Below, piece by piece: positions 49,768 to 53,418 of a DNA stretch of 64,000 nucleotides. Position numbers and translations under genes: made by a program. The notes under the pieces are model-generated. The model was not told where the DNA came from and searched no databases. It saw only the letters and a program-made list of their open reading frames with translations. Each line of letters opens with the position of its first letter. Positions within the stretch are counted from its first letter, which is position 1. The stretch is from a phage: sequence record OM867527.1; one strand, written 5' to 3'.

Positions 49768-49812
49768 ATCAATTTCCTCATAAGTAAATAGCAGAGTTAG
49801 TATACATGACAG

Positions 49813-49843
49813 ATAAAAAAATAAACCCTCCGTTAAGAGGGTT
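49813..49843 (-). terminator. rho-independent terminator (minus strand)
   Basis: AACCCTC-(6-nt loop)-GAGGGTT followed on the minus strand by TTTTTTTATCT. Confidence 0.5.
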
Positions 49844-50024
49844 AGTTGTTTACGCAGTAGATAGCAAAAGCTATCCATCCCGCTATTACAAAGCAGCCTA
49901 GTGAGTATGCTCCATAATAGCAGTAAGCAAACTTAGACTTGTGGGCACGGACTATCGTAGCCAGAGCCAGTACGGATAAAACTATCAGTATTAACTGAAA
50001 GATTATTTCAAAAGTGATTAGCAT
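49842..50024 (-). CDS. small membrane protein (~60 aa)
   Basis: Start at the ATG with a GGAGGT RBS; hydrophobic helices throughout. Confidence 0.35.
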   Translation of the reverse strand: MLITFEIIFQLILIVLSVLALATIVRAHKSKFAYCYYGAYSLGCFVIAGWIAFAIYCVNN

Positions 50025-50041
50025 AGTTGCTACCTCCAAAG

Positions 50042-50074
50042 AAAAAATAAGCCTCACTCCCGAAGGAATGAGGC
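50042..50074 (-). terminator. rho-independent terminator after the RNAP II genes (minus strand)
   Basis: GCCTCA...TGAGGC stem with inner pairs and a CGAA-type loop, followed on the minus strand by TTATTTTTTC. Confidence 0.5.
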
Positions 50075-50081
50075 TAGTTTA

Positions 50082-51299
50082 TTAACTTAATGCATAGTCT
50101 GTTTCAAGAATGTCCTGCCAGAGGCTGTCATCCAGCTTACCAGCAGAGAACTCTTGCCCCAGTACCTGAGACAGAATGAAGCCCAGCAGGTCACTCTTAG
50201 CAATGTCAGACAGAATCTGATTGTACTGACGACGTAAGTCGTTACCGTAGTTAGGATGGCAACGGAAGCAGTCATGTACAGTCATTACAGGGAATGGCTT
50301 CTTAGGCAAAGTATTGAGCATAGTTAAGATTACATCTGTATCTACCAATGCAATGGTTTCTGAATCCAGGTAATCAAAGATACGGGTAGACAGGAATCCA
50401 GACTTCTTATAACTAGTCCATAATGTATTAACCATTTCATGGCTAGCACCTGGGACAACTATGTATTCACTGGTTCCCTCACAGAGGGACTTAATATAGT
50501 TCACCTGGTTCATGTTGAAGTTACAACGACGCAGCATCTCACGTACCACCATTCCATCAATAGAGTGAGTGATGTTAGCAGAGAGCATACGGGTCTTTTC
50601 TTCAGTACCCTGAACCATACGAGTGATGTCGAATGGCTTACCTAAGAAGTTAACAGTCTGTACCTCTGGAACCATGACCTTAATGACAGCATGGAAGTTG
50701 TCAGGCAGTACCCATATGTAACGGTTGGCATCAGGGTTACCACATTGCAGTAAGAACTTGTTGAGTGCCCAAGGACCACTAGCAACAGTTTCCATTACAT
50801 TCTCAAAAGTCTTGAGACGAATACCTTCACCGAATACCTCTTTAGGCTTGGCTTCTGAGCCGTAGAATGCAGTCATAACAGCCTGCTTAGTGTCACTACG
50901 TTTAATACGTGATGCTTCACCAAGGATGTCCAGCATCTTATGATAGATGACTGTATAAGCATCACGGCGTAATGGTTTACCATTCTCACCCATGTAATTA
51001 ACTACGTTACACAGTTCAGCAGCAGAACGGTCACCGGTCAGACAGGCCAGTAACTGCAAGCCTGATGATGTAGCATCCAGAGCTACGGCATAGCCAATAG
51101 GCTTACCTGCTTTCATATCTTTCCATGCGTTTACACCAGCAAAGAACAGAGCAGAATCTTCAGCTTCATCTACCAGATTAAGCAGGTTAGCTTCGTTCTC
51201 ATCGAACCAGGCAATACGTTCATCCCATGTCTTCTTATCTAAGCCATAGTTATTAGCAATATCTACTTTCAGGTATTCTTTAGCGGTTAACAGTTGCAT
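50082..51299 (-). CDS. phage RNA polymerase II catalytic subunit (N4 gp16-like, T7-like RNAP C-terminal half)
   Basis: Motif A-like ALDATSSGLQ, motif B-like KQAVMTAFYGSEAK, motif C-like MTVHDCF; 405 aa (N4 gp16 ~404 aa by recall). Confidence 0.75.
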   Translation of the reverse strand: MQLLTAKEYLKVDIANNYGLDKKTWDERIAWFDENEANLLNLVDEAEDSALFFAGVNAWKDMKAGKPIGYAVALDATSSGLQLLACLTGDRSAAELCNVVNYMGENGKPLRRDAYTVIYHKMLDILGEASRIKRSDTKQAVMTAFYGSEAKPKEVFGEGIRLKTFENVMETVASGPWALNKFLLQCGNPDANRYIWVLPDNFHAVIKVMVPEVQTVNFLGKPFDITRMVQGTEEKTRMLSANITHSIDGMVVREMLRRCNFNMNQVNYIKSLCEGTSEYIVVPGASHEMVNTLWTSYKKSGFLSTRIFDYLDSETIALVDTDVILTMLNTLPKKPFPVMTVHDCFRCHPNYGNDLRRQYNQILSDIAKSDLLGFILSQVLGQEFSAGKLDDSLWQDILETDYALS

Positions 51300-51356
51300 T
51301 TTATGTTCCTTTTGCTTCTTGGCTCCCCACTATGAAGAGCCTGCTTATTGGGATTA

Positions 51357-51971
51357 TTACTTCCAGGCCCACTTAAAGCCTTTGTATGTTTTGGGGTTAT
51401 AAATATGACCTCTGCCATCCTTCACAGGGATACCATTGGCTACCGTTATAATACCCCACGTTCTACCACTTACATGGCGTGCAGCATCTGCTGTAGTAAC
51501 AAATTCTTTATAGAATGTACCGTCTAGGTGATAGGCGATAACAGGTTGTGCAGTGGCAATGTTACCTTCTTTCTTGCTACGTGCTCCTTTATCCCTATTC
51601 TCTTTCCAGGACATTAGTTGAATGTTATCCAGAGTATATGGTTTTTGGTCATCTATACGGTCTACAGATGGTTTATAGTCTTTTGCATAGTCACTCGCTA
51701 CATAATCATCCCATAGTTGATGAATATTTGGTTGTTTATCCAACCATTCATAGAAATCTTCTAGTGAATAGTTGGGTGGTGGGTGTCCTCTTTTAATAGA
51801 GTGAGATAGTTGAGTTAGATAAGTCTTCCTGAACATACATACCGGGTCGGCTTTGTTATACCTCAAAGTCCGACATTTACGGCACCGTACCTCATAACCG
51901 TCTTTGCAGGTTGATTTTGGTACGAACTCTGTGAGGTCTTTTGTTTCCCCACAGTCCTTGCAGATTTTCAT
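51357..51971 (-). CDS. zinc-ribbon / HNH-like endonuclease (free-standing homing-endonuclease-like ORF)
   Basis: N-terminal CxxC...CxxC cluster; VDRIDDQKPYTLDNIQLMSWKENRDKG matches the HNH_3-type pattern HHIDxN...NL.L.....EN but with the His-His pair replaced by Asp-Arg; sits between the two RNAP II subunit genes. Confidence 0.4.
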   Translation of the reverse strand: MKICKDCGETKDLTEFVPKSTCKDGYEVRCRKCRTLRYNKADPVCMFRKTYLTQLSHSIKRGHPPPNYSLEDFYEWLDKQPNIHQLWDDYVASDYAKDYKPSVDRIDDQKPYTLDNIQLMSWKENRDKGARSKKEGNIATAQPVIAYHLDGTFYKEFVTTADAARHVSGRTWGIITVANGIPVKDGRGHIYNPKTYKGFKWAWK

Positions 51972-52786
51972 TAGTCCTCCACGAGTTCTTTATGTGCGAA
52001 CTCTATTACTGCCTTATTCCATGAAGTACCCGCATAATTAATATGGTAACCACAGGCATATGTACGCCCACGTTTGTCATATTTGTGAGCCAGAGAGAAA
52101 TTATTACCTTCTTTGGTCACTAACTCCATTACTTCCTTAGCTGTACGACTGTATTTCTCAAAGGCTTTGACTCGTTTCTCATATTCCTGACGGGTTTCAC
52201 CTTCTTTTGGTTTATCCATGTTAGGACGAGAGTCTTTTACGTAGTTAGCAACGTCCCAGTTAATGCAGAGACGTTGATTGTTCATACGGTTGATGTGGTC
52301 AAGACAGACATCCATCTCATGATGGTTCTTCTTGAGGATGATGCTACCCCTGCTTTCGTAGTAACCAGTATCACGGTTACATTTAACAGGCTTAGGAGCA
52401 CTTACGATAGGCAATGGATACTGGAATGCTTCTAGTTCCATCTGTACATCTTCACTAATCTCATAGATAACACCGAACTTGTCGATGGTAGGGTCATAGT
52501 TGAAGCAGTCATTCTCTGCCATCTTATACAGACAGTCAGCGATGTACTGAGCATCATCTGAGTGACTCATAAGAGAGCCAATCATAGTCTGAATGTCAGC
52601 ACGTTTATGTAGGGCAATCTGCACCATTGCATCAATGAGCAGCTTATAATCAATTTCCAAATAGGCAGCGAATGCCTTAAAGTCAATTTCTTCGGAGTCC
52701 TCGAATTCCTTCCTCATGCGAGGGAGTAATTGATTCTTGTTGAAAAGGATTTCAAGTCGCTTCTGATGTTCAATAGATGAGTACAT
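51971..52786 (-). CDS. phage RNA polymerase II small subunit (N4 gp15-like, T7-like RNAP N-terminal half)
   Basis: DxRGRxY-like motif YDKRGRTY near the C-terminus; 271 aa; upstream of the catalytic subunit. Confidence 0.6.
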   Translation of the reverse strand: MYSSIEHQKRLEILFNKNQLLPRMRKEFEDSEEIDFKAFAAYLEIDYKLLIDAMVQIALHKRADIQTMIGSLMSHSDDAQYIADCLYKMAENDCFNYDPTIDKFGVIYEISEDVQMELEAFQYPLPIVSAPKPVKCNRDTGYYESRGSIILKKNHHEMDVCLDHINRMNNQRLCINWDVANYVKDSRPNMDKPKEGETRQEYEKRVKAFEKYSRTAKEVMELVTKEGNNFSLAHKYDKRGRTYACGYHINYAGTSWNKAVIEFAHKELVED

Positions 52787-52806
52787 CGCATATTCTCCTA
52801 ATTAAT

Positions 52807-53040
52807 TTAAACAATACTTGCTATTAGAGTCCTAGTTTTATGTTCACTAGCACATCGGTAATACATTCTTATGTAGTTTCCATGGAAGTTATGTCTCCAT
52901 GCCCACGGGAAGGGTAGTTCTACTTCACACCAGTTATTAGGGCTTTCATATGCCCCTTTAACTGCTTCTTTAATCTTTGGATAATTACCCCATTTATGTT
53001 TATGTTTCTTAGCTATGATTTGCTGAATTGATACCGACAT
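52807..53040 (-). CDS. hypothetical protein (77 aa)
   Basis: Small ORF upstream of the RNAP II genes. Confidence 0.35.
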   Translation of the reverse strand: MSVSIQQIIAKKHKHKWGNYPKIKEAVKGAYESPNNWCEVELPFPWAWRHNFHGNYIRMYYRCASEHKTRTLIASIV

Positions 53041-53067
53041 TGCATATCCTTAAGCTGCGGAGCAGCT

Positions 53068-53418
53068 TTAACTCCAGTAGTTGTAAGCATCACCTAAGTA
53101 TTTACGCCATGCTTCTGGTAACAGCACGTTGCCAGTGACATTAATGAACAGGTATGGGTCCATAAAATCCATTCTCATTACTTTGAAATCCCATTGCGGA
53201 TTAATAGATGCATAAGCAATAAAACCCTCAATGAAGCCATAAATAGCACCTTCTTTGATCCGGTCACCACTACCATCTCTTACCGGAATGGCGAAGCTAT
53301 TACCATAATGACCATAGGCCATTCCCCATCGAGCACCATGCTTCTTATAAGCTAATTTGGCAGCAGCATTAGTATGCTGCCCTAGTGTATTGGTAGTGAA
53401 TACTAAGATTTCTTTCAC
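53068..53418 (-). CDS. hypothetical protein (116 aa)
   Basis: Member of a translationally coupled small-gene operon (4-nt ATGA overlaps). Confidence 0.4.
   Translation of the reverse strand: MKEILVFTTNTLGQHTNAAAKLAYKKHGARWGMAYGHYGNSFAIPVRDGSGDRIKEGAIYGFIEGFIAYASINPQWDFKVMRMDFMDPYLFINVTGNVLLPEAWRKYLGDAYNYWS

Follow-up and report, generated by a model that had tools for sequence, protein, structure and literature searches.

The probable endonuclease gene at the RNAPII junction

Can a nuclease-like protein that has an arginine where its relatives carry a catalytic histidine still cut DNA, and how does its gene come to lie between the two genes of a phage RNA polymerase? These questions are raised by an open reading frame (ORF) at 51357..51971 on the minus strand of the phage sequence OM867527.1, of which a stretch of 64,000 nucleotides (nt), here called the window, was analysed. 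The ORF has an ATG start and encodes 204 amino acids (aa) followed by a stop codon. Its product is a member of PHROG 1035 (match to phrog_1035 at 4.5e-33, under the label “endonuclease VII”). Read along the minus strand, a gp15-like gene is followed by the ORF, a spacer and a gp16-like gene, the two flanking genes encoding the small and catalytic subunits of RNA polymerase II (RNAPII). The region 50000-52900 is 100% identical to Escherichia phage HK2 (PP514361.1), a Gamaleyavirus and G7C-like relative of N4. An earlier note, written from the letters alone, had described an ORF between two RNAPII subunit genes, a start codon overlapping the small-subunit stop, and an N-terminal CxxC...CxxC cluster, and each of these observations holds: the flanking genes match phrog_2166 and phrog_2051, the overlap is a TAATG sharing one base, and the cysteines are C4/C7 and C30/C33. 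Judging from sequence and predicted fold, we consider it likely that the ORF encodes a free-standing homing endonuclease of the PacI type with an I-HmuI/NUMOD-type tail, predicted to be active.

Correspondence of the predicted active site to PacI

R.PacI (PDB 3ldy/3m7k) is a ββα-Me restriction endonuclease that forms part of His-Me finger group 20; it has no catalytic His, for which an omega-loop Tyr substitutes (PMC5714182). It is an active enzyme with one Asp and one Asn as metal ligands (PMC4081073), and its catalytic residues have been given as “H, DR, CxxCN”, with a Tyr after DR (PMC11529989). The PacI sequence used for comparison is an exact match to the 3ldy chain, and the residue roles were drawn from secondary sources.

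The family was aligned with PacI by hhalign over residues 1-130 (E 4.6e-5, probability 68.5%, identity 21-23%). In this alignment the spacing VDRxDxxxxYxxxNxxLxxxxxNRxK is identical in the family and in PacI, and ungapped; in the ORF product it begins with the segment VDRIDDQKPYTLDNIQLMSWKEN, residues 103-125. V103-D104-R105 pairs with PacI V91-D92-R93, D107 with D95, Y112 with Y100, N116 with N104, L119 with L107, and N125-R126-x-K128 with N113-R114-x-K116. Upstream of the core, C4/C7/C30/C33 pair with PacI C4/C7/C24/C27, in hhalign as well as in MAFFT, and H63 is aligned with H42 (“rgHp” with “eGHa” in hhalign). Y100 is the sole Tyr after D-R in the 3ldy sequence, and the distance from D-R to Tyr is 7 residues in both proteins. 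When eight phage members were aligned with PacI using MAFFT, the invariant residues were exactly C4, C7, C30, C33, D104, Y112 and N125. Of the features that mark the PacI-type group, the ORF product has a ββα-metal fold similar to that of PacI, a D-R dyad without catalytic His at the end of β1 (D104-R105, corresponding to D92-R93), an omega-loop Tyr (Y112) and a helix Asn, the predicted ligand (N125); of the two Cys4 zinc sites it has one. The ORF thus carries a predicted PacI catalytic set.

In the family alignment, conservation is highest in the motif P-S-[VI]-D-R...Y...N........N. Conservation was counted over about 205 diverged family domains covering the motif. Position 105 is R in 199 of these, K in 5 and H in 1; D104 is kept in 199, Y112 in 202 of 205, N116 in 202, and N125 in 199 of about 205-207. 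The zinc ribbon cysteines C4, C7, C30 and C33 are kept in 184-185 of the domains that span these positions. Between HK2 and pSb-1 the endonuclease gene has a synonymous divergence (dS) of 0.27 and a non-synonymous divergence (dN) of 0.019, giving a dN/dS of 0.07; the gene is under purifying selection. The earlier note had read the Asp-Arg pair as the mark of an inactivated or repurposed nuclease. Arg in 199 of 205 domains, the low dN/dS and the co-occurrence of D-R, Tyr and Asn as in PacI speak against this, and the D-R motif is best regarded as a constrained putative active-site signature rather than decay. A tempting misreading is thereby corrected: a missing catalytic His does not here mean a dead nuclease.

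The library protein P0003 (L014:2541-3155), which is 71% identical to the HK2 ORF and has the same stop/start overlap with gp15, reads PSIDH in place of PSVDR, so that His naturally replaces Arg where the general base would be. An HNH_3 endonuclease gene lies just upstream of gp15 in the same contig.

Relationship to I-HmuI and HNH_3

I-HmuI (PDB 1u3e), from Bacillus phage SPO1, is a homing endonuclease of the HNH type that nicks DNA and is encoded in an intron. Searched against PDB sequences, the family profile matches it at E 0.0087, and family positions 84-191 align with I-HmuI residues 56-167, on through the C-terminal DNA-binding module. In this alignment the family sequence “PSvDRidd..Y.L.NiqLmtwkeN” faces I-HmuI “vDHKDGNKDNNLS-NLRWVTQKIN”. 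The Asp-His dyad of I-HmuI (D74-H75) is therefore only half present in the ORF, with Asp104 kept and His replaced by Arg105. The earlier note's description of a His-His pair replaced by Asp-Arg was mis-stated, since the canonical I-HmuI/HNH_3 dyad is Asp-His and Asp104 is the canonical metal ligand. Its proposal that the segment fits the HNH_3 pattern apart from the His pair survives in part: the ββα-Me relationship is upheld by the fold and by distant similarity to both I-HmuI and PacI, but the profile search suggested there as a check, with Pfam HNH_3 (PF13392), gave no match at E≤1 for the ORF and none among the 44 family members. I-HmuI differs from the ORF product in its catalytic His75 and in having no N-terminal zinc ribbon, where the HK2 protein has Arg105 and a ribbon, and in being intron-encoded, where the HK2 gene is free-standing.

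Domain architecture and size of the family

An AlphaFold2 (AF2) model made with the family alignment is confident, with a predicted local distance difference test score (pLDDT) of 91.9. It is laid out as a zinc ribbon, a helical region, a β-β-α core, a short and less confident linker, and a β-β-helix-turn-helix tail. The Cys4 zinc ribbon comprises residues 1-38 with C4, C7, C30 and C33 (51858..51971, minus strand, as are all the segments that follow). The helical region, with an RGHP motif, comprises residues 43-92 (51696..51845), with AF2 helices at 43-60, 70-78 and 83-92. The ββα-Me catalytic core, residues 101-135 (51567..51671), carries P101-S102-V-D104-R105, Y112, N116 and N125 on strands 101-105 and 117-121, helix 122-135 and the parts between them. 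The C-terminal DNA-binding tail of the I-HmuI/NUMOD type, β-β and helix-turn-helix, comprises residues 144-204 (51360..51542). Its assignment comes from the family profile of 44 members, of which 19 match NUMOD1 and 15 an I-HmuI_NUMOD-like model, the query ORF alone falling below threshold. A fold search of BFVD also returned giant-virus HNH endonucleases and T4 MobB; the giant-virus matches of the modelled fold are consistent with a placement near the PacI group. A Peptidase_M3_N match of the ORF (E 0.21) was dismissed as chance.

The ORF product is not simply a phage copy of PacI. PacI has two Cys4 sites per subunit, of which the HK2 protein has the first only; PacI is a homodimer of 142-aa chains without a separate DNA-binding tail, whereas the HK2 protein bears one of the NUMOD/I-HmuI type; and PacI is a restriction enzyme, whereas the HK2 ORF is a mobile gene in a phage. 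Free-standing PacI-like HNH endonucleases have been recognised by HHpred in other viruses, namely Skunavirus (PMC12724721) and the Asgard Opia viruses (PMC11529989). With hmmsearch, the family profile matched PacI among the PDB sequences at the N-terminal zinc ribbon alone (E 0.062), and a word-indexed search for PacI homologues with the N-terminal 40 residues of PacI gave no match.

When a profile of 44 homologues was searched against 1.84 billion representative proteins, 1,844 representative clusters were recovered at E≤1e-30. This number and the phrog_1035 match place the ORF well outside what chance would produce. The top 150 matches are mostly proteins of about 200 aa that align end to end. 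In some library proteins of 800-1,100 aa (P0057, P0058, P0082, P0158 and P0198) 9-13 tandem matches to the NUMOD-like module of the C-terminus make up long DNA-binding repeat arrays. PacI-type, Tyr-based ββα-Me chemistry appears to be widespread among phage homing endonucleases that are missed by Pfam HNH models.

Distribution at the junction and evidence of mobility

Megablast searches with the RNAPII locus matched 59 phage records, and the insert is present in only three of them, one of HK2 and two of pSb-1. The ORF is 100% identical to the “endonuclease” coding sequence (CDS) of HK2 and 95.6% identical to pSb-1 gp54. Three endonuclease lineages are found at the gp15-gp16 junction, namely the HK2/pSb-1 type (3 records), the G7C gp15.1 type (7 records), and an HNH/AP2 type with a D-H dyad. 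The G7C gp15.1 type (193 aa; G7C, ST4, PGN829.1, Bas96 and Moonfish) belongs to the same family, at 33% identity, and has the same junction, the same architecture and D-R; it is labelled a putative HNH homing endonuclease. Its insert boundaries differ, as it reaches right up to the gp16 ATG and is divergent in both flanks. In UE-S5a, UE-M3 and UE-M6 the junction is occupied by an unrelated endonuclease of the canonical HNH/AP2 kind, which contains ..IDHINGIRTD.., and the junction of PhAPEC7 and 24-32N holds just unrelated small ORFs (53 and 79 aa). In phage Jura and Burkholderia phage HN03, relatives of the HNH/AP2 protein (L005:1848-2354) likewise adjoin the RNAP1 (gp15) gene (78% and 56% identity), so that this lineage spans three N4-like genera and is a second site-linked endonuclease lineage at the junction.

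The carriers HK2 and pSb-1 share, to the exclusion of other records, a divergent tract where gp15 ends (51971..52090, minus strand), in which most changes are synonymous. Over the last 75-120 nt or so of gp15, identity to PhAPEC7 and 24-32N is 64-75% in 60-nt windows, compared with 90-100% over most of the remaining gene, and HK2 and pSb-1 are 92-93% identical to each other in the same tract. It resembles a putative co-converted flank or immunised target site. Four metagenomic homologues, with 76, 71, 57 and 48% identity to the ORF product, lie directly 3' of gp15 genes whose products are 95, 94, 53 and 24% identical, respectively. The endonuclease lineage is, as far as these comparisons reach, tied to the gp15 3' site across deep divergence. 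Movement of the endonuclease between phages is suggested both by the most distant contig, because there the endonuclease is better conserved than the host gp15, and by the nearest metagenomic phage, because an endonuclease of just 76% identity with saturated dS stands there beside a gp15 of 95.6% identity.

The sporadic presence at a fixed site, outside any intron or intein, is as expected for a free-standing homing endonuclease. Mobile-element invasion of the junction, which the earlier note had suspected, is upheld by the presence of the insert in three of 59 records, by the other endonucleases or small ORFs in its place in relatives, and by the gp15 tract confined to carriers.

Proposed mode of action and alternative explanations

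If the ORF does encode a homing endonuclease of the PacI type, residues 1-135 would form a His-free ββα-metal (His-Me finger) nuclease whose fold is buttressed by the Cys4 ribbon. A single catalytic Mg2+ would be held by D104 and N125, and N116 would brace the hairpin. Y112, in the loop after D-R, would take over the role of His as general base or nucleophile, and R105, probably with H63, would place or deprotonate the Tyr or stabilise the transition state. The helix-turn-helix tail (residues 144-204) would anchor the protein on its recognition sequence, and the enzyme may act as a monomeric nickase like I-HmuI or as a dimer like PacI. The protein would be made from the early/middle RNAPII transcript, in translational coupling with gp15 (TAATG, GGAGGA). 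In a mixed infection the core would then make a nick or a cut in the allele that lacks the endonuclease, close to the conserved gp15 3' end, with the likely target around the DxRGRxY-coding region, about 100 nt from the gp15 stop. Through repair from the carrier genome, the recipient would acquire the gene together with some 100 nt of the adjoining gp15.

Several points weigh against this interpretation. The activity of the clade, the roles of its residues and homing itself are deduced from sequence and fold. Scans of the ORF against Pfam and NCBIfam returned nothing useful and left the catalytic region unmatched, phmmer with the single ORF sequence found no match in the PDB, and hhalign gives PacI a probability of only 68.5%. 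H63 is present in just 143 of 201 domains, and the second Cys4 site of PacI (C63/C66/C109/C112) is occupied by residues other than Cys in the ORF product (S121-W-K-E-N125). In the accessible part of PMC12724721, the one PacI-like endonuclease tested in lactococcal phages, H1-93, is outside the two constructs reported to lower plaquing of the phage under test. The divergence at the 3' end of gp15 could stem from ordinary mosaic recombination. There is a similar mosaic patch in gp16 (window 50280-50520, gp16 nt ~780-1020), where HK2 is only 52-72% identical to pSb-1/UE-S5a but 83-100% identical to 24-32N, a sign that the polymerase gene has recombined internally without involvement of the insert.

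Some of these points would also follow if the protein were a catalytically dead or domesticated HNH-like DNA binder or regulator, left after loss of the general-base His, for which SMAD MH1 domains are a precedent. The general-base position is without His, the HNH models of Pfam find no match, the DNA-binding tail is kept, and the Skunavirus PacI-like endonuclease mentioned above is outside the constructs reported for exclusion. The conservation of D104, N125, N116 and Tyr112 (97-99% over the domains counted) would be unexpected had catalysis been lost, however, and the active-site spacing is exactly that of an active enzyme (PMC4081073); taking into account, too, a sporadic and site-linked distribution like that of a selfish element, we regard a dead nuclease as quite unlikely. 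Distinctly improbable, in our view, is an active PacI-type nuclease whose main use, instead of its own homing, is restriction-like exclusion directed at rival phages or host DNA. PacI is itself a restriction enzyme, viral relatives of PacI have been proposed as viral restriction enzymes (PMC5714182), and marker exclusion is documented for some phage HNH endonucleases (PMC12724721), but the lineage is bound to one genomic site across deep divergence and the flanking tract also fits homing. Exclusion and homing can in any case coexist.

The label of phrog_1035, together with the name endonuclease VII in the records of pSb-1, PGN829.1 and rV5-like phages, would make the ORF product a Holliday-junction resolvase, or a packaging or repair nuclease, that serves the phage's own DNA metabolism. 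T4 endonuclease VII belongs to the ββα-Me nucleases and has a Cys4 zinc site of structural function, and an N-terminal Cys4 combined with a ββα-Me core is what the ORF product has as well. On the other hand, T4 endonuclease VII has a catalytic His and is a core resolvase, while the HK2 ORF is a His-less insert whose sporadic distribution conflicts with such a role. No sequence or fold match to endonuclease VII was detected with the family profile against the PDB, with Pfam on the 44 members or in the fold search, membership in Pfam Endonuclease_7 was rejected on this ground, and the PHROG 1035 label is probably wrong. A resolvase is accordingly a very improbable explanation, and least probable of all is an accessory or regulatory factor of RNAPII. 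The latter would accommodate the overlap with the gp15 stop, the lack of a terminator before gp16 and the adjacency of family members to RNAPII genes in distant N4-like phages; yet the ORF is missing from most relatives with the same polymerase, its place is taken elsewhere by the unrelated canonical HNH/AP2 endonuclease, and the family is also found in rV5-like, Vibrio and Cellulophaga phages, away from any RNAP.

The split polymerase and relatives in probable introns

N4 RNAPII is a heterodimer of gp15 and gp16, and the earlier note had placed the insert at the junction of a split polymerase. A connection between the split and the insertion was not borne out. Homologues of gp15 are found in 468 phage records, but the ORF was matched (E≤1e-5, anywhere in the genome) in only 107, about half of which are V5/rV5-type Escherichia, Shigella and “Campylobacter” phages of ~136-143 kb that are not relatives of N4. 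Because of these numbers, and because N4 itself is without any of these selfish elements (PMC3670811), the gp15/gp16 split is ancestral and not due to the insert.

Members of the family interrupt gp16 itself in two other phages. In Vibrio phage pVco-7 (L007:3582-4439) gp15 is followed by a family member, gp16 residues 1-149, a second member and the C-terminal 262 aa of gp16, and in Acinetobacter phage XC38 (L009:782-1707) the order is the N-terminal 143 aa of gp16, a member, the C-terminal 238 aa of gp16 and another member. In both, the inner copy breaks gp16 near residues 137-140, in motif B, and has non-coding flanks of 130-270 nt. These flanks match Rfam group I introns with E values of 7e-7 and 2e-6, which do not reach the gathering score, and the interruptions in pVco-7 and XC38 are probably group I introns in an N4-like polymerase gene. 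The intron-borne members have Asp-Lys in place of Asp-Arg and are without a NUMOD tail. The PHROG 1035 family is both free-standing and intron-borne, like homing endonucleases. In a metagenomic N4-like contig (L013:4468-6699, Logan ERR11040842), gp16 residues 1-213 and 331-404 are encoded in separate ORFs, with a GIY-YIG-type ORF (L013:5500-6174) between the pieces.

The RNAPII genes of N4-like phages, which serve middle transcription, are a hot spot for selfish endonucleases and introns, which bears on the origin of “genes in pieces” and on the engineering of N4-like phages. A much further-reaching reading would be that a very large clade of phage proteins, uncurated in Pfam and of at least 1,800 clusters (at 50% identity), combines PacI-type Tyr chemistry with an I-HmuI-type tail, and that invasion of RNAPII, at the junction and by intron-borne D-K members at motif B of gp16, originally split a T7-like polymerase. 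We consider this unlikely. If true, PacI-type chemistry would be a mainstream mechanism of homing endonucleases and not an oddity confined to a single restriction enzyme and a few genes of giant viruses. In the window itself, the ORF is an ordinary mobile gene. The annotation “endonuclease” in HK2 and pSb-1, the HNH homing endonuclease label of G7C, and PacI-like phage genes elsewhere (PMC11529989, PMC12724721) were already known; the residue-level mapping of Asp-Arg to PacI, the size of the family, the probable endonuclease VII mislabel and the recurrent association with N4-like RNAPII are new.

Gene order and expression signals

The gp15-like small subunit (271 aa; 51971..52786, minus strand) matches phrog_2166 at 4.5e-115 and has the C-terminus KYDKRGRTY...ELVED; its gene carries the label RNAP1 subunit B in the HK2 and G7C records. 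The gp16-like catalytic subunit (405 aa; 50082..51299, minus strand) has matches to phrog_2051 (7.6e-176) and, in Pfam, to RNA_pol (1e-14). The pSb-1 record (L003:583-1799) divides gp16 between the overlapping CDS gp55 and gp56, which implies a frameshift or sequencing error in that record. No second member of the PHROG 1035 type was found across the window.

At the left boundary of the insert, the TAATG overlap (51969-51973, minus strand) has one base common to the TAA of gp15 and the ATG of the ORF (51971-51969). The Shine-Dalgarno sequence of the endonuclease gene, GGAGGA (51975..51980, minus strand), lies inside the last gp15 codons, 3 nt before the ATG. Insert-less relatives have GTAAATGAAGAC at the end of gp15, which in them is one codon longer. 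The right end of the insert is sharp, as the shared spacer starts directly after the endonuclease stop. This spacer before gp16 (51300..51356, minus strand) is 55-57 nt long and is also present in insert-less relatives; its sequence, TAATC..CCAATAAGCAGGCTC...AAGGAACATAAAATG, is found likewise in PhAPEC7 and 24-32N, and contains the gp16 Shine-Dalgarno sequence, AAGGAA.

An Rfam scan of 49800-53100 gave no match at E≤1, hence no intron signal around the ORF, and a group I intron enclosing it was rejected. A search for terminator-like sites at the locus found none between gp15, the endonuclease gene and gp16; the sole one, a hairpin with a T-run, follows gp16 (50050..50075, minus strand). The three genes are therefore probably on one transcript. 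The spacer contains a hairpin of its own at 51321-51341 (minus strand), between the endonuclease stop and the gp16 Shine-Dalgarno sequence, with a 9-bp stem and a 3-nt loop (GGCUCUUCA-UAG-UGGGGAGCC). It has no T-run downstream and its fold is energetically not unusual (-13 kcal/mol, z -1.6), and it is kept in the insert-less relatives.

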